Positions 12,898-19,799 of a DNA stretch of 33,950 nucleotides are shown here, piece by piece. A model generated the notes under the pieces. The model made no database searches, was not told where the DNA came from, and saw nothing but the letters and a program-made list of their open reading frames with translations. Made by a program: the position numbers and the translations under genes. The DNA is from a virus (lineage: Duplodnaviria > Caudoviricetes): positions 1 through 33,950 of the IMG/VR virus record IMGVR_UViG_3300030376_001422; one strand, given 5' to 3'. The stretch's first letter is position 1. Each line of letters opens with the position of its first letter.

Positions 12898-14418
12898 CTA
12901 CATTCGTGACCAAATTGAACTTCTTATTTTCTGTATAGGCTTTCTTGCGAAAATATCAAAGCCTTTTCTTGCATGAAAAGCAGAAACTGGTTTCTGTCCA
13001 GACATAAGTTTTCGCCCTTCCCCTGCTCCTAGCATCAAATATTGTAGAGCATCATGCACATGAGAATACATATTCTTATCAGGCTTTGTGTCATATCGTT
13101 CACCACTTACCTGTAACTTCCTGTAGGCATAACCACCTTCAAAACCCTTAATTAACGTAGGACATCTTCTATCTACAAGAAAAGCAGAAAGACCTTCTGA
13201 CATTTTATTTAGTTGAGAAGATACGGACTCCAATCTTAAATCCACACTATTACTTGGAGCAGGTGACGCTCTTAATCCTGCACCCCTTAATATTTGGAAT
13301 GGTGTTGATTCATCAGTTTGCGCTCTAAAGTCACCAGCAGGGTCGCCATAAATAAAGACATCCAAGTTCCCAAATCGTGTAGCTATCTCTTGTCGTAATA
13401 ATTCAGCGAACCGAACTATACCCATATCAATAGCTACTATCTCTGTTTGTATTAACCATCTGCCTCTTACCTTCTGTCCAAATACAGCAGAAGGAGTAAG
13501 TCCAAAGTCAATACCAATATATAAAGGCACTCCAATAGCAATAGGTATTTCTTCTTTAGCTATATGGGTTTCTGAATAGAAGTCAGGATATACAGGCTTG
13601 CCTTCCTGTATTAATCCCAATCTGTTCATAACATACACATCTATCCAGTTCTTAGTCTTTCCTCTAATAAGATTCGTATAATAAGTTCCAAGAATATTAG
13701 ATTTATTCTCTGCTTTCTTATTCATTGTATAACTTTCGATTATACCATCCTCACCCTTCTTTTCTATCATTGCAGGAGGTTGTGTATAAAAGTTCCAGTT
13801 ATCAGGCTTTATCAACATGGTCGCCTGTTCTCTAGGAATGTGGTCTGGTATGGGAACATCACCTGCCATAATCGCCCACCAATGGTCCTCCTCAGGAGCG
13901 TTAGTATCACAGATAACACCAGACCAACTAGGTCCACCTTCTCGCATAGAAGGAAATCTTCCACATCTCATTGTCACAGCATCAATAATGCTCTTTGGAA
14001 TTTCTCTGGCTTCATTTACCCACACCCCTGTTAATTCAAGGGAGAGTAGTTTCTTCACATCTTCTGGCCTATCAAGAGCTAAGAAGATAACTTCAATATC
14101 TAAATCATTTCTTTTGATGTGGTGGGTGTAGGGAACTGACCAATGAAACCTACCCCACACATCTTCTGGAAACCAATCCAACCAAGTCTTAATTGTAGTA
14201 GTTCTAAGTTGTGGGTTTGTATTTCTGATGACTGCCCATCTACTTCGCTTCACACCATCATCATTAGGCTTTTGTTCTAAGGCTCTTCTAAATACTTCCA
14301 CACAACAGGCAACAGACTTGCCAGAACCAACAGGGCCACGAATACCACGAAAGAAACTACTGTCTTTCATAAAGTCTTTTAAGACTTGTCCATCTGGTTT
14401 GTATTTAAAAGTTGTCAT
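12898..14418 (-). CDS. terL: Terminase large subunit
   Basis: Walker A GPVGSGKS, Walker B WVNEARE, DTN motif, RNase H-like GIDFGLTP and HVHDALQY. Confidence 0.95.
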   Translation of the reverse strand: MTTFKYKPDGQVLKDFMKDSSFFRGIRGPVGSGKSVACCVEVFRRALEQKPNDDGVKRSRWAVIRNTNPQLRTTTIKTWLDWFPEDVWGRFHWSVPYTHHIKRNDLDIEVIFLALDRPEDVKKLLSLELTGVWVNEAREIPKSIIDAVTMRCGRFPSMREGGPSWSGVICDTNAPEEDHWWAIMAGDVPIPDHIPREQATMLIKPDNWNFYTQPPAMIEKKGEDGIIESYTMNKKAENKSNILGTYYTNLIRGKTKNWIDVYVMNRLGLIQEGKPVYPDFYSETHIAKEEIPIAIGVPLYIGIDFGLTPSAVFGQKVRGRWLIQTEIVAIDMGIVRFAELLRQEIATRFGNLDVFIYGDPAGDFRAQTDESTPFQILRGAGLRASPAPSNSVDLRLESVSSQLNKMSEGLSAFLVDRRCPTLIKGFEGGYAYRKLQVSGERYDTKPDKNMYSHVHDALQYLMLGAGEGRKLMSGQKPVSAFHARKGFDIFARKPIQKIRSSIWSRM

Positions 14419-14867: not shown

Positions 14868-16250
14868 CTAGTCATAAACCCAACCACCATGCCAAGCCTT
14901 TCGTCTCTTTTTTGGGTCGGGAGCTTCAAAATTAAACTTCTTGCCAAAGAGAGTAACAGTCTTTTTAGTTTGGCCAACGCCTAGTTTTTGTAGAGACTTA
15001 GGTAGTTTACTTTGTGCTTCTTTAGTTAAACCCCAACCTTTACCACCTACTAATTTATTCTGCTTACCTGCATCTGAATTAGAACTGCTTGCAGGTTTAC
15101 CTTTAGCATTTAAGTAGGACCTAAGTGTTTTATGTCCAGACTTTGTTAACTGGTCTTTAGTTACATTAGCATAGCTCTTACCTTTGTAATTAAATGTTGA
15201 AGGTTTGTTCTTTAAAGAATTGTAATGCTTAAAGGCTTCCTTAAAACTTCCGAATGAAGAACCTGAAGGACCTTTACCTCCTGAACTCTTATCTGCTTTA
15301 GTAGGTGTAGAAGTAGTAGTAGATTTATCCGCATCTCTAAGTCTTTTCCTAGCATCTGATAATTTTTTATCAGACAGCTTCTTCATAGAGCCTCTATCTG
15401 CATCTCGGAATCTACTTGAAGCTGATGGGGATTTAGGTTTGTTTGGATTGTCACCTGCACCACCTCTTCTTGTAGTAACTCTAGCACCAAGTTGAGAACT
15501 AGGAAGTTCTCCTCTAGTGCCTTTATCATCAGAAGGAACTCTACCTGCTAGTCTACCTTTACCAACAGGCTCTTGCTTTCTAACAGCTCCAGTTACATCA
15601 GTAAGTGTTTTAGGTCTTTTGTTTTCCCTAATCCTATCGCCAACCTCATTAATAGCAAGAACAGTTCCTATACCTGCGGCTGTTAATCCTATTCGTTTCA
15701 TTGCCTGAATTGTTGGGTCTACCTTACTTCTATTCACAGACCTACCAACATTCTGTTTAAGTTTAGGAGATTTTAACAACGTAGAACTCTTACCCTTTTT
15801 TACCTTAACCTTAGGGCCTTTCCCCTTTGAAACTACTGCCTTAGGGTCAATCTTAAATCTACTTAAAAGATTGTTTACTTGTTGGGAGCTAACATTCTTA
15901 CCTTGATTAATATTGGAAATAACTTCTCGTTGCTTTTGAGTAAGCTGTGAAGGAGGCTTGTCAAGGTTACTAGCTTTAGCTTTTCTTTGCTTTACTATAT
16001 CCTTAACTTTCTGACCTTGCCCTTTTCCTTTAGGTGCTACATCCTTAACTGCCTTCTTAGTTTTACCTATGTTTTTAACAACACTGGTAGTTAAGTTTTT
16101 TACTTTTGATTTGTTAGTCTTGCTAATGTTCTTAACAATACTTGCTCCTTTTCTAATAGCTTGTTTAGCTAAAAGTTGAGCCGCAGGTGAGCGTGCTACT
16201 TTGTAGACAAGCATACCTATTCTTATTGCTACTATTAATGGTGCCACCAT
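14868..16250 (-). CDS. Highly basic, Lys-rich low-complexity protein, 460 aa
   Basis: K/R/S/G-rich; AAGGAG RBS; SFKEAF...FNYKGKSY motif. Confidence 0.8.
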   Translation of the reverse strand: MVAPLIVAIRIGMLVYKVARSPAAQLLAKQAIRKGASIVKNISKTNKSKVKNLTTSVVKNIGKTKKAVKDVAPKGKGQGQKVKDIVKQRKAKASNLDKPPSQLTQKQREVISNINQGKNVSSQQVNNLLSRFKIDPKAVVSKGKGPKVKVKKGKSSTLLKSPKLKQNVGRSVNRSKVDPTIQAMKRIGLTAAGIGTVLAINEVGDRIRENKRPKTLTDVTGAVRKQEPVGKGRLAGRVPSDDKGTRGELPSSQLGARVTTRRGGAGDNPNKPKSPSASSRFRDADRGSMKKLSDKKLSDARKRLRDADKSTTTSTPTKADKSSGGKGPSGSSFGSFKEAFKHYNSLKNKPSTFNYKGKSYANVTKDQLTKSGHKTLRSYLNAKGKPASSSNSDAGKQNKLVGGKGWGLTKEAQSKLPKSLQKLGVGQTKKTVTLFGKKFNFEAPDPKKRRKAWHGGWVYD

Positions 16251-16299
16251 TTTATTTGCTCCTTGTTTGCTATGCTACCACTTAGTGACGCACAGCCGT

Positions 16300-16422
16300 T
16301 TACGATTTACTCGGTTTCTTCTTCTTAACTCTTTTTATTGTTACAGGAGGTGTAGAAGGTTTGTCAATGTTTCTCTTGAACAACGACTTTATCTTTCTAA
16401 ATAAATTAATGATATGTTGCAT
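16300..16422 (-). CDS. Small basic hypothetical protein, 40 aa
   Basis: Manually translated MQHIINLFRKIKSLFKRNIDKPSTPPVTIKRVKKKKPSKS; AGAGG upstream. Confidence 0.5.
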   Translation of the reverse strand: MQHIINLFRKIKSLFKRNIDKPSTPPVTIKRVKKKKPSKS

Positions 16423-16589
16423 TGAGCTTTTTTCCTCTAAAATTGTTAGTGATAGACCTTCACAGGGAATGGCGGTAACAGTTTTGACCCCCCATACTCC
16501 GTATGTGCGGTTGACTTAGTGAGCTTTTGCTCAGATTACAGCGGAGCTGTAAGTCAGGCAACAAGCTCAGGCTAAGTCGAAGGGGAAGG

Positions 16590-16964
16590 TTAGCTGAGGT
16601 CAATAGACACCTTGACATCAGCCGTATGAAGATGAACTTGCTTGTCAGGACTCTTCAAGCCAACCCTATCAAGGATGTCCTTGCTTGCCTCTAGCTGTAC
16701 GTATTCACTTCTTGCATCACCTGACAAGGAGACTATCTTTTGTACGGCTGACGTAGCATGCATGCTTAAAGAGTTAGCCACAGATTGCAGGAGGTAACTC
16801 TGTACATGTGGTTGCTTCAGAGCCTTACTGGCACTGACTCTACCGCTTTCACCTTCTGCATATCCTGCAATCTGAGAGGCTTCTTTAATCGTGCATGCCT
16901 TTGATACGAGCGTATCCACTAATGCCACCTGCTTTTCTGTCAAACTTCTGTTGTTCTGGTTCAT
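16590..16964 (-). CDS. terS: Terminase small subunit (probable start at 16964, 124 aa)
   Basis: LTEKQ...TIKEASQIAGY HTH, ASKAL..PHV, ASKDILDRVG motifs; GGAGG 7 nt before the ATG at 16964. Confidence 0.85.
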   Translation of the reverse strand: MNQNNRSLTEKQVALVDTLVSKACTIKEASQIAGYAEGESGRVSASKALKQPHVQSYLLQSVANSLSMHATSAVQKIVSLSGDARSEYVQLEASKDILDRVGLKSPDKQVHLHTADVKVSIDLS

Positions 16965-17442
16965 GCTAGCACCTCCAGAATGGACTTTACGCTCGGTCAA
17001 AGAGGCATGTCAAGGTGTTAATTCTACTATCGCCCATAAAGTTGAGTACGGAGACTGTGGAGGTGTCATCTTACCATGAACAACACCTGAATCTCTCGTG
17101 CAGATTCCCATTCCCGACACAGAGCATCAGGTCTGCTACTGTAGCCTTATCTGACCTGCGGTTCTGGAGAGATTCAGCCTCATGGTAGATGACGCTCCAC
17201 CTACCTCTAAACCCCACTCTTTTCCTGAAAGTAGCAAATCAGCTCCACCTCTGCCATGCTGTGGAAGAACAGCATGCAACTTTAGTGCGAAACCCATAAC
17301 AGATGACATCTACCAGTAGTTCGGAAGGTAATTCGACTGTAAGCCCAATGCTCACGAACGAAATTTGACTGCGAGTTCCTCATGTTTTGTGCAAGACTGG
17401 TCACGCTACCTTCCTTCCTTTGCAGTTGTTAAATTGCTCCTC

Positions 17443-17556
17443 ACCATAGCAGGAGCAAAACCATGTCAACAAGAATGACGGCTTCCACTCGCGAGCAAGA
17501 GCGAGCGGACCCTCCGCAATTCTTGTGGACTTGGTTTTCTTTTCTCCTGCTATTGG
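17443..17556. promoter_or_regulatory. Paired sigma70-like elements on the two arms of the hairpin
   Basis: Minus strand TTGACA(17469-64)-15 nt-TATGGT(17448-43); plus strand TGGACT(17526-31)-19 nt-TATTGG(17551-56); both -10 boxes preceded by TGC. Confidence 0.45.
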
Positions 17557-17592
17557 TGCTACACAATTTAACAGCAAAGAAAGGAGGGCATC

Positions 17593-17997
17593 ATGCCCAA
17601 TCTTACAAAAACACTCGAAACTCTTGCAAATTCCGTTCGTGACCCTTGGGGTCGAATCCGAACTGTAGAGTCAATCTGTTATGGATTTCACACTAAACTT
17701 GCGTTCTTCCAAGAACAGCATGACAGAGTTGAATCCGATTTACTTCAGGAAGAAGAGCGTTGCATAGAGGCAGGTGAAGCGTCAATGAGGCTTGAATCTC
17801 TCTTCACTCGCAGGGCAGAGAAGGCAGATACAGTAGCTGACCTGAAGGCTCTTCTAGAGTCGGCAATGGAAATCTACAAGAAAGAGTCAGGTGAGGATTA
17901 TGTCCATGGTAAGAAGAAACCACGCCCAGTCTCTACGAACTCAGACTTTAATGAGTACGCTAGTAGGTTTAACAGACAACCTCTTAGCCCGAAGTAA
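17593..17997 (+). CDS. First early gene, unknown helical protein, 134 aa
   Basis: Strong RBS AAGGAGG; intact frame while its antisense mirror is full of indels. Confidence 0.8.
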   Translation: MPNLTKTLETLANSVRDPWGRIRTVESICYGFHTKLAFFQEQHDRVESDLLQEEERCIEAGEASMRLESLFTRRAEKADTVADLKALLESAMEIYKKESGEDYVHGKKKPRPVSTNSDFNEYASRFNRQPLSPK

Positions 17998-18251
17998 AGT
18001 CAACCAATTCTGGAGGGTGCTAGTCACTCTCCAGAACATCTTTGTCTGCGAGTGGATACGCTCGTAGTCAAAGGTGTACGTCAGCCGTAGGCTGATGTCT
18101 GTGGTATCTATCGAATCACACCTTCCCCTAGCATGAGAGGAGTGAGGGGGGTTAAAATGGAACACCGCCTAAGAACAGGGGTGTTAGAGTATGGCGGTAA
18201 ATAGGCTAGAGTACATAGACCTGAACAACTAAATGATTGGAGTAAAATAAG

Positions 18252-18449
18252 ATGAATGAAGAATTGATTCCTAAATCAGAACTCAATGATTTTATAAATG
18301 AAAGACGAAAGATAATTGTAAAGCAGAAGTTAAGAAAACCAATGATTGATTTCTCAACAGACGGAAAGATATGGTGGCTGTTTGAAGGGGTGTTATATCT
18401 AGGAGTATTTACATTAGGAATTTGGTTAGGGTTTGTGCTGTTATCTTAA
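18252..18449 (+). CDS. Small membrane protein
   Basis: GGAG RBS; C-terminal hydrophobic helix. Confidence 0.65.
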   Translation: MNEELIPKSELNDFINERRKIIVKQKLRKPMIDFSTDGKIWWLFEGVLYLGVFTLGIWLGFVLLS

Positions 18450-18458
18450 CCAAATAAA

Positions 18459-18829
18459 GTAAGGAGATAATGAAAGTACCATACATATAAATCTACAACG
18501 TAGTTTGTATGGCCTCATTATCTTCTTACAACAGCACACGAATAAAGGTTCTTAAACTAAGGGGTTTAGGAACTATCAGGATTCCCTTGACGAAGGGGAT
18601 AAGGAGCAAGGAGATTTGTGGCGTTCTCAATACGTCTTAGACTTTCCCATTAGCTAAGATAGATATTGTACTAACTATCTCCTTGCAACTTCTTGTGTCC
18701 GAATAAATAAGTATTAAAACGGACACAGAGTGTAGGTAAATAAATAGGTATTAATTAACCTACGAATAAATCTATCAATCATAACGCAAAAGAATTGCAA
18801 GGCACGCTTCGCTTAAACACCTTGCAATT
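18459..18829 (+). other. Non-coding chain of consecutive hairpins (structured RNA, processing sites or origin)
   Basis: Stems 18459-73/18515-29, 18606-15/18677-86, 18694-701/18720-27, 18732-37/18758-63, 18793-802/18820-29. Confidence 0.7.
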
Positions 18830-18853
18830 ATTGTGCTTATATGATTTGATAGG

Positions 18854-18867
18854 TTGCATAAGTGCAA
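18854..18867. promoter_or_regulatory. Putative operator TTGCA-N4-TGCAA (copy 1)
   Basis: TTGCATAAGTGCAA, 30 nt upstream of the DUF932 start, just after TTGATA. Confidence 0.6.
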
Positions 18868-18896
18868 TAAATATATTCATTAAAAGGAGAGAGAAA

Positions 18897-19799
18897 ATGG
18901 ATGGAACTTTTAATTGGTCAGTCTACAATAAGAAACTACTTCAAGCTGAGAATGTTTGTGATAGTTCAGACTATAACTTTGGATATGAGTGGAAAGAATT
19001 ATCTGCTGATGGTGTACCTATACCAACTAGATTGGGCAGGGCATTAGTCAGAAAAGATAATGGCATGACACTTGGTATTCATAAATCTAAATATGTACCT
19101 GTTAAACATGAGTCTGTTGTAGATAGTGTACTTGAAACAGTAGAGAAGTTAGACTGTGGAAAAACATATACAACAATAGAAGTGTTTGAAGAAGGCAGGA
19201 AACTAAGAGGTCAGATATACTTTGATGATGTAACTATTGAACCTCAGATTGGTGATGTCATTGGATACACTATAGACTTTAGAAATTCTTATGATGGAAC
19301 ATGGAAGTTAGCAATGGCAGGGGAAGGAAAGAGAATCTTCTGTCTCAATACTATGACACACGGCATGAGGTTGAGTGAGAATATAATCAAGCATACTATA
19401 TCTGCTTCTGTTGCTGATACATCTGAGAAACTAAAGATGGCTATGGAAACATTTGTTAATAGTGAAGATACATATAAGAGAATGATTGAATCTAAACAAG
19501 ATGAGACAACAGCTAAAGAATTACTTGAGCGTTATTTGTGTAGGATGCCAACCAAATCAGGCAATCCTAAAACAAATGATGTTCAATTAGAAATTGTTTG
19601 TGGTCAGTTGCAAAAAGAAAGAGCAATGCTAGGCGGCAATCAATGGGCTACCTATAACACAGCTACACATTGGGCTACCCATACACCTAAGGGAGAGAAT
19701 GACAGGAAGCGAAACGAAACTGTTGTAGGTAGATTAAATGATGCGACTACTAGGCATCTAAAAGTTGAGCAGTTAAAGGATGCGTTAGCATACGCATAA
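18897..19799 (+). CDS. DUF932 (TIGR03299/UPF0380-like) protein, 300 aa
   Basis: LGIHKSKY.PV.H, NSYDGT, RIFCLNTM, KHT, NQWATYNTATHWATH motifs; AAGGAG RBS before the ATG at 18897. Confidence 0.85.
   Translation: MDGTFNWSVYNKKLLQAENVCDSSDYNFGYEWKELSADGVPIPTRLGRALVRKDNGMTLGIHKSKYVPVKHESVVDSVLETVEKLDCGKTYTTIEVFEEGRKLRGQIYFDDVTIEPQIGDVIGYTIDFRNSYDGTWKLAMAGEGKRIFCLNTMTHGMRLSENIIKHTISASVADTSEKLKMAMETFVNSEDTYKRMIESKQDETTAKELLERYLCRMPTKSGNPKTNDVQLEIVCGQLQKERAMLGGNQWATYNTATHWATHTPKGENDRKRNETVVGRLNDATTRHLKVEQLKDALAYA

Follow-up and report, generated by a model that had tools for sequence, protein, structure and literature searches.

The DNA lying between the late and the early genes of this phage raises the question of why a whole early gene should be accompanied by an apparently non-coding antisense copy of itself, and whether the two together make up a folded single-stranded element. 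The DNA of tailed phages is regarded as double-stranded all the way from packaging until the first transcription, and no description of a single-stranded stage in such tailed phages was found in the literature. The window, that is, the whole stretch of 33,950 nucleotides that was analysed, is a 33.8-kb podovirus genome, circularly assembled with a 148-nt end overlap. Its virion genes are T7-like, with TerL at 12898-14418 and the terminase small subunit, TerS, at 16590-16964; the late genes are read on the minus strand from terS, and the early genes on the plus strand from a 134-aa gene, here termed X (17593-17997). RecE/YqaJ exonuclease, SSB-like, RusA-like, AlpA and DUF932 genes are also encoded, and no match to a DNA polymerase, primase or helicase was obtained among the 33 window proteins scanned. 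No HUH/Rep-type protein appeared in the PHROG and Pfam scans (33 and 13 proteins), many of the early ORFs being orphans. The rod formed by X and its mirror proved to be real, selected and family-wide, and belongs to no known family of such elements.

Geometry of the rod and its predicted fold

In a local inverted alignment, the arms 16952-17481 and 17514-18038 gave 407 Watson-Crick matches in 490 aligned positions, being about 83% complementary, with indels; the score was 439, whereas none of the ten remaining 3-kb tiles, which lack the rod, exceeded 62. The preliminary description had read the 'intergenic' DNA as a colinear, bulged reverse complement of the X segment, and this alignment bears it out. 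The helices named there were also recovered, namely the apex stem 17484-17492/17501-17509, with eight of nine positions paired around the loop GAGCAAGA (17493-17500), 22 of 24 in 17281-17304/17674-17697, 17 of 19 in 17191-17209/17765-17783, and a colinear match with a one-base bulge in 16967-16981/18007-18022. When the minus strand of 17050-17950 was folded against shuffled controls, as proposed at the outset, the z value was -32 with DNA and -37 with RNA parameters, none of 20 shuffles being as low.

The arms of about 545 nt first described are real, but this extent was too small. In fact, the full predicted fold of the minus strand, which is terS-sense and the template strand of X, is branched and runs from 18169 to 16471, taking in X, the mirror and terS, with 76% of its bases paired in the minimum free energy structure (DNA -482 for the minus vs -436 for the plus strand; RNA -894 vs -788). 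Its main arm, 18046-17501/17492-16939, joins the template arm (17501-18046, minus strand), antisense of the X leader, RBS, CDS and terminator, to the mirror arm (16939-17492, minus strand), an indel-riddled near-copy of the X-sense sequence, which is recognized by alignment, fold and covariation. The X leader with its RBS (17510-17592, plus strand) is the best-conserved part near the apex, and the main duplex ends past X at a terminator-like hairpin with a T-rich tail (18008-18046, plus strand). Four further helices follow out to 18169/16471. There, 18051-18129 pairs with three separate pieces of terS, the part of the fold at 16590-16964 (minus strand, identified by protein scan), and three bulged hairpin domains are looped out; the predicted pairings are 16899-16920/18051-18073, 16743-16755/18077-18089 and 16581-16623/18090-18129, with branches at 16756-16898 and 16629-16739. 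A branch hairpin follows terS (16513-16578, minus strand), and a stem, 18131-18169 with 16471-16508, closes the fold.

The helices are interrupted throughout, as had been noted, but the spacing of 6-16 bp then given is too long, since runs average 4 bp, and no perfect helix exceeds 10 bp in the main arm or 16 bp in the distal one. The accompanying suggestion that the breaks limit perfect duplex holds in part: the longest runs in ten long rods of the family are 10-17 bp, but fall below random (P<0.05) in only three of the ten. The elevated GC content was confirmed (46-48% at 16501-18000 vs 31-42% in the remaining 500-nt bins). Moreover, the mirror has no ORF of 60 aa or more, the longest minus-strand ORF wholly within it being of 57-58 aa; nevertheless, a sigma-70-like terS promoter, TTGACA-18-TAAAGT, supported by family comparison, lies within it at 17013-16984 on the minus strand, so that the mirror cannot be called inert.

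A fold-back artefact of assembly or library preparation would be in keeping with the frequent assembly breaks at this locus, where, of 80 contigs with terS, 24 stop within 1.2 kb on the upstream side of this gene and three within the same distance downstream. This excess of contig ends fits structure-related dropout, microdiversity or genome ends alike, and the fold may itself explain the breaks of these phages at the X-terS locus. The artefact reading is effectively refuted, given the incomplete complementarity with its indels, the covariation described below, and the presence of the rod in separate assemblies and a cultured isolate. The junctions, for which supporting reads had been called for, are spanned at the apex by a contig from an independent run (17413-17649; 12 substitutions, one gap), and both arms are colinear in eight separately assembled related contigs of four genotypes (one of them, L083, possibly from the same sample).

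Conservation across the family

The TerS patterns are matched by approximately 920 stored IMG/VR stretches, the only cultured close relative being Pelagibacter phage EXVC031P Hodr (OQ414635; TerS 51%, TerL 64%, exonuclease 36%). Hodr shares with the window the divergent X/terS layout, the rod (score 246, unique in the Hodr genome) and a candidate end motif past terS, but the 5' half of its X pairs partly with terS itself; its record annotates no repeat or structure at the rod locus. A BLASTN search of the rod against cultured phages gave no match. Two TerL relatives lack a rod: MEP301, with an inverted-alignment score of at most 46, and BcepC6B, in which only a 108-nt imperfect inverted repeat was seen at the start of the record (L094 1-103 with the last bases of L101, upstream of the terS region). 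Family contigs also occur within MAGs labelled as archaea, Gammaproteobacteria and Rhodobiaceae (L095-L099, with L097 a long rod), where they are probably misbinned.

Inverted-alignment scores of at least 90 were obtained in 43 of 82 loci with terS, a set that was not dereplicated and in which one of the 43 is a hairpin past terS, many others being cut short upstream. From a total of 149 loci, X was automatically chosen in 104, a few of these picks being likely wrong, and 58 remained after dereplication. When at least 40% of the positions from -100 to +30 around the X ATG were required to pair with the distal mirror, 44 of these 58 relatives qualified, Hodr included, against eight of 58 with a shuffled partner region. 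The relatives thus keep X with its mirror rather than X without it, a point that had been left to comparison. In the 44 loci, pairing reaches 75-85% from about -65 to +25 of the ATG and drops to about 40% (25-55%), often branched, upstream of -70, so that the conserved family core is the 5' end of X, about -65 to +25 around the ATG. In the whole-region folds (42 of the 58), pairing of the 5' third of X was seen in 23 loci, and that of the 3' third in three.

Long rods were found in 10 of 61 loci, on seven branches of the TerS tree, of which at least three are forced by well-supported branches. The mirroring of a whole gene, true of the window, is therefore a minority state and not a family rule. 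In eight of nine long rods the duplex starts 56-114 nt before the X ATG and reaches 34-56 nt beyond the stop codon, where the terminator lies; the partner end is less fixed, falling anywhere from -223 to +14 relative to terS. The exception is Hodr, in which the duplex stops inside X. In this set the window and L003 are near-copies, the contig of L113 ends at +35, and L014 was omitted as truncated. Since the duplex starts in the X leader and ends over the terminator, the long form spans the X transcription unit.

Two small sequence elements were also noted in the leader. The element YRTGNY recurs at about -63 to -57 before the X ATG in a subgroup (e.g. L013, L028, L066, L076 and L113), often with a mirror T opposite a template G (20 of 44 loci). 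A small internal loop at RTAAG, about -45 to -41 before the ATG, occurs in 12 of 44 loci, 16-18 nt past YRTGNY and just before a short leader hairpin; together, the two make a candidate initiation site.

Compensatory change and the selected strand

Compared with L086 (88% identical), 36 pairs of the rod changed on both sides and stayed Watson-Crick, two became G·T and five broke, against an expectation of 8.3 double changes and 3-8 in slid controls; among one-sided changes, 44 broke a pair, nine led to G·T and ten started from it. Against L084 (96%), four compensations were counted with 0.7 expected; L001 was left out of the covariation because of a misaligned end. With compensatory changes beyond chance, the mirror kept by relatives and the apex spanned, the earlier proposal of a selected, folded single-stranded element is upheld.

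Compensated changes tend to lie next to each other (11 adjacent vs 6.4, P=0.02), and template switching may supply such clusters. This bears on the reading in which the rod is a functionless inverted duplication, with arms that stay complementary through gene conversion or template switching between them, which would also be consistent with a mirror that diverges from L086 as fast as X (16.5% and 17.3%). Nevertheless, the same position and core are found in lineages whose X is only 7-19% identical to that of the window, the mismatch bias is confined to one strand, particular branch-loop types are enriched, the ends are set by the X terminator, and the distal arm is stitched from three separate terS segments, all of which make such a duplication quite improbable. 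In fact, selection is favoured despite the clustering because of the duplex boundaries and the strand bias. Within the locus, the X leader shows two differences in 96 positions to L086, against 17% in X. As a separate observation, the differences in X (17593-17997) are spread evenly over the codon positions (26/20/24), and the compensated changes number 18, 13 and 6 at positions 1, 2 and 3; this pattern suggests rapid protein evolution or structure-limited synonymous change.

Isolated mismatches were counted on the terS-sense strand of 28 hand-picked dereplicated loci. G·T was the commonest (147), followed by A·G (95), C·T (73), T·T (63) and G·G (40), with A·C and A·A at 23 each and C·C at 8. 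Taken per locus, G·T exceeded A·C in 20 of the 28, with eight ties and no reverse case; the bias was weaker when counted without alignment (G·T 20 vs A·C 12, with five-pair flanks). Furthermore, in 50 of 58 loci it is the terS-sense strand that has the more stable fold. Selection acts on the minus strand, that is, the terS-sense strand and template of X, and on this strand only. Simple deamination as a cause of the strand bias was considered and is not supported, bulged C not being depleted (64/236).

This asymmetry also bears on two readings that involve the other strand. In the first, X mRNA would fold back to hide its ribosome site, in the manner of type I toxin-antitoxin systems, as could be expected from a conserved core that covers the RBS and start codon of X; in the second, the repeat would extrude as a cruciform in supercoiled double-stranded DNA. 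However, the G·U-tolerant duplex of an mRNA-strand fold-back was not found, since the X-sense duplex would hold 147 C·A mismatches against 23 G·U, on what is the less stable strand in those 50 loci, and a cruciform would have both strands selected alike. Either reading is very unlikely.

As regards structure in terS, synonymous shuffling gave a z of -3.3, vs -1.7 for terL (16 loci, 8 shuffles), and family-wide covariation inside terS was dominated by noise. A hairpin lies at the terS L-E-A-S codons, about +257 to +294, in L005, L008, L013, L014, L022, L025, L048, L049 and L067, its third positions appearing to change in step.

DNA or RNA

The branch loops of the folded strand were surveyed over 33.9 kb of non-coding sequence, a few counts repeating between L132 and L160. 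CTTG was found 15 times (0.5 in shuffled sequence, three on the opposite strand), TTTA nine times (1.0) and cTTTg seven times (1.0). According to passages of PMC9975016, CTTG and TTTA are type II DNA tetraloops, and CTTG is the most stable minidumbbell sequence. GNRA loops were also enriched in our survey (17 vs 4.3), and UUCG was absent from the 594 loops of the folded strand. CUUG is also an RNA tetraloop when closed by G-C. Hairpins of the cUUCGg type had been considered as an RNA signal of the rod and were dropped, as they are X terminators on the other strand, where they make up 11 of 16 RNA terminators detected (55 loci). G·T pairs are sparse, at 32 of 670 pairs in one count and 41 of 671 in another, and at 3.7 per 100 Watson-Crick pairs across the 28 loci, vs 8.1 for other mismatches. 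The ratios of G·T to A·C and of G·G to C·C are compatible with RNA energetics as well, and a calibration of the mismatches on E. coli rRNA, MS2 and the levivirus NC_001890 had too little power to tell DNA from RNA. The folded strand is probably DNA rather than RNA; of the two molecules left open in the preliminary description, DNA is favoured, and the strand is settled as the minus.

The RNA alternative is a terS-sense rod serving as a self-masked antisense RNA to X, or as a 6S-RNA- or deltavirus-like template for X mRNA. It would account for the G·U-type asymmetry of one strand, the GNRA loops and the small conserved internal loop 41-45 nt before the ATG, and a 1.7-kb bulged rod with one antisense-coded ORF recalls deltaviruses and obelisks. 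The rods of deltaviruses, obelisks and ambiviruses are likewise of 1-1.7 kb, built of short helices with an ORF on the complementary strand, but the element described here is integral to a 33.8-kb DNA phage genome, including that of a cultured isolate, with no existence as circular RNA alone, and its loops lean towards DNA types. Moreover, no antisense signal was seen for a promoter that would make the rod as RNA (z 0.01, -0.07 and -0.36), nearly all of the mirror lies upstream of the start set by the terS promoter, and the absence of UUCG, the dominance of CTTG and TTTA and a G·U share of only 41 in 671 pairs also argue against RNA. Rfam gave nothing near the gathering score at 15800-19000 of the window, and no family or ribozyme at gathering level in 15 related loci, a result with which ribozymes of an undescribed type may be compatible. 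An RNA rod is therefore regarded as unlikely.

Gene X and transcription signals

The X proteins measure 128-280 aa and form a fast-evolving phage family, with 7-19% identity to the window X outside its own group. The window X is modelled as an orphan antiparallel coiled-coil hairpin of two helices (pLDDT 85), whose acidic tip could conceivably bind RNA polymerase. No Pfam family was found across 22 members, no PDB fold at E<=0.001 and no usable Atlas feature match; in BFVD the matches were uncharacterised phage proteins only, and a profile search returned 85 proteins at E<=0.001, none of them named.

The RBS of X is strong, and its stop codon is usually followed directly by a terminator. Sigma-70 signals were scored with an E. 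coli matrix, which does detect the terS promoter: the mean z upstream of terS was 2.1, with TTGAC present in 28 of 28 loci, and from the position of this signal the late transcript likely starts past the mirror. Upstream of X no sigma-70 signal was found (z -0.37), and neither stem arm showed -35/-10 boxes (mean z -0.2 and 0.0, 24 loci). In several relatives a separate sigma-70-like promoter was seen past the X terminator (at -836 relative to terS in L082, -1132 in L013, -955 in L022, -1061 in L069, -903 in L076 and -1244 in L025), which would drive the remaining early genes; over the family as a whole this signal is weak (z 0.44). Twin runs of G6-8, 3-8 nt apart, are also found about -55 to -5 before terS, at its predicted transcription start, in many relatives (e.g. 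L008, L022, L048, L055 and L076); they are absent in the window and could be a G-quadruplex or a protein site.

A candidate end motif

Past terS, at the 3' end of the folded strand, 81 of 83 loci carry a motif of about 70 bp with fixed spacing, which in the window lies at 16430-16495 (minus strand) and consists of a G-run, AAAA, CAAACATT and an A-tract. It is single-copy in the two whole genomes, the window and Hodr, and its core gave 67 IMG/VR matches, 61 with terS just upstream. The first gene past it in the window encodes a very basic 460-aa orphan (14868-16250, minus strand) with no PHROG or Pfam match, in whose place Hodr carries small ORFs. The HK97/SfV-type cos region is characterised by a G-run/TCAAA with spaced T- and A-tracts behind it, at the end of the genome; in the one SfV record searched (about 1,400 positions per strand), the best position of the motif profile spans the end junction, with a weak match (-9.3 vs 38 for the window's own motif). 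The motif, at the 3' terminus of the folded strand, may be where the genome is cut or ends. Passages of a survey of marine phages (PMC7111524) give fixed terminal repeats for most of those surveyed, and the rod family is not named in them.

The closing stem of the window (18131-18169, minus strand) is an inverted copy of the G-run/AAAA part of this motif. A single-stranded DNA fold could serve for complementary-strand priming, for protection or processing of a genome end, or for marking by terminase, with X as a passenger. The DNA-type loops and the strand evidence would suit this function equally; the fold is situated immediately 5' of the terminus-like motif, which occurs once and within which the fold closes in the window, and the lack of a DNA polymerase, primase or helicase match among the 33 proteins scanned points in the same direction. 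Fold-primed synthesis of the complementary strand is known from the single-strand origins of rolling-circle plasmids and the minus-strand origin of M13. With these the rod shares the form of a bulged one-strand structure 5' of a candidate nick or end site, transcription pointing away, but it is 4-10 times longer, contains protein genes, and comes without a Rep among the proteins scanned. However, the duplex boundaries track the X leader and terminator, not terS or the motif, and closure on the motif does not hold throughout the family, so that a priming or end-processing fold is considered unlikely.

A proposed self-complementing transcription unit

The reading that we tentatively prefer, at a confidence just short of probable, is that of a single-stranded DNA pseudo-duplex which lets X be transcribed, working like plasmid Frpo without -35/-10 boxes. 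In passages of PMC11541004 and PMC9849209, Frpo is a non-coding imperfect stem-loop which, by mimicking double-stranded DNA, allows early genes to be expressed from the incoming strand. The selection of the X template strand corresponds to the geometry of Frpo-driven leading genes, as given in passages of PMC9849209. As in Frpo and ssi, a stable single-strand stem-loop, backed by covariation, is predicted upstream of an early gene, and the folded strand is the template of the downstream gene. The rod differs in that its stem has no canonical -35/-10 boxes, for which reason it was not filed as an Frpo member, in that its duplex covers the RBS, the CDS and, in long forms, the terminator, and in that the window is a podovirus genome, not a conjugative leading region, of a tailed phage without known single-strand transfer. 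The hairpin promoters of the N4 virion RNA polymerase also tie podovirus early transcription to the structure of a single-stranded template, but they are of few base pairs and need the virion polymerase, which was not identified in the window, a simple pattern search for a polymerase motif in the large virion proteins having given none.

This pseudo-duplex reading starts from what sequence and comparison supply: the complementarity and its conservation, compensatory change, strand asymmetry, the boundaries, and a sigma-70 signal at terS and not at X. The X-terS segment would be single-stranded at some stage, in the virion, after post-entry resection, or during replication or packaging. The X template strand, likely as single-stranded DNA, would then fold back onto the non-coding mirror, which would stand in for the missing non-template strand, giving RNA polymerase a duplex in which to initiate and acting as the partner strand that displaces the RNA; the long forms would also supply a proper terminator. 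In this way, X would be read from an otherwise single-stranded segment adjoining a probable genome end, the motif being the end or nick site, and the frequent bulges would keep the repeat genetically stable while double-stranded. Several observations speak against the pseudo-duplex: the arms contain no -35/-10 boxes and pairing is weak upstream of -70, where a promoter would sit; most relatives mirror only the 5' third of X, and the Hodr duplex stops inside it; no HUH/Rep-type match among the 33 and 13 proteins scanned offers a source of single-stranded DNA; GNRA loops are enriched, and the compensations are clustered. The broader statement, that a marine podovirus family, including a cultured SAR11 phage, exposes a 1-1.7-kb single-stranded terminal segment as a self-complementing transcription unit with a structure-defined promoter, is put forward as a possibility of a more doubtful kind.

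Implications for the phage family

The preliminary description knew of no podovirus feature like this one, and searches of openly accessible main-text literature likewise returned no description of the element or of Hodr; a term search of two pelagiphage papers and one on uncultivated pelagiphages found no passage on hairpins or inverted repeats. A covarying one-strand fold that persists in lineages too diverged to align indicates that this strand is at some stage without its complement, and that selection acts on the shape it takes. If the fold drives X, single-strand promoters would extend from plasmid conjugation to tailed phages, and abundant ocean viruses would have an undescribed entry, end-processing or replication step. 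If the rod is RNA, a DNA phage would encode a viroid-like rod. Either reading is directly testable in Hodr on Pelagibacter HTCC1062.
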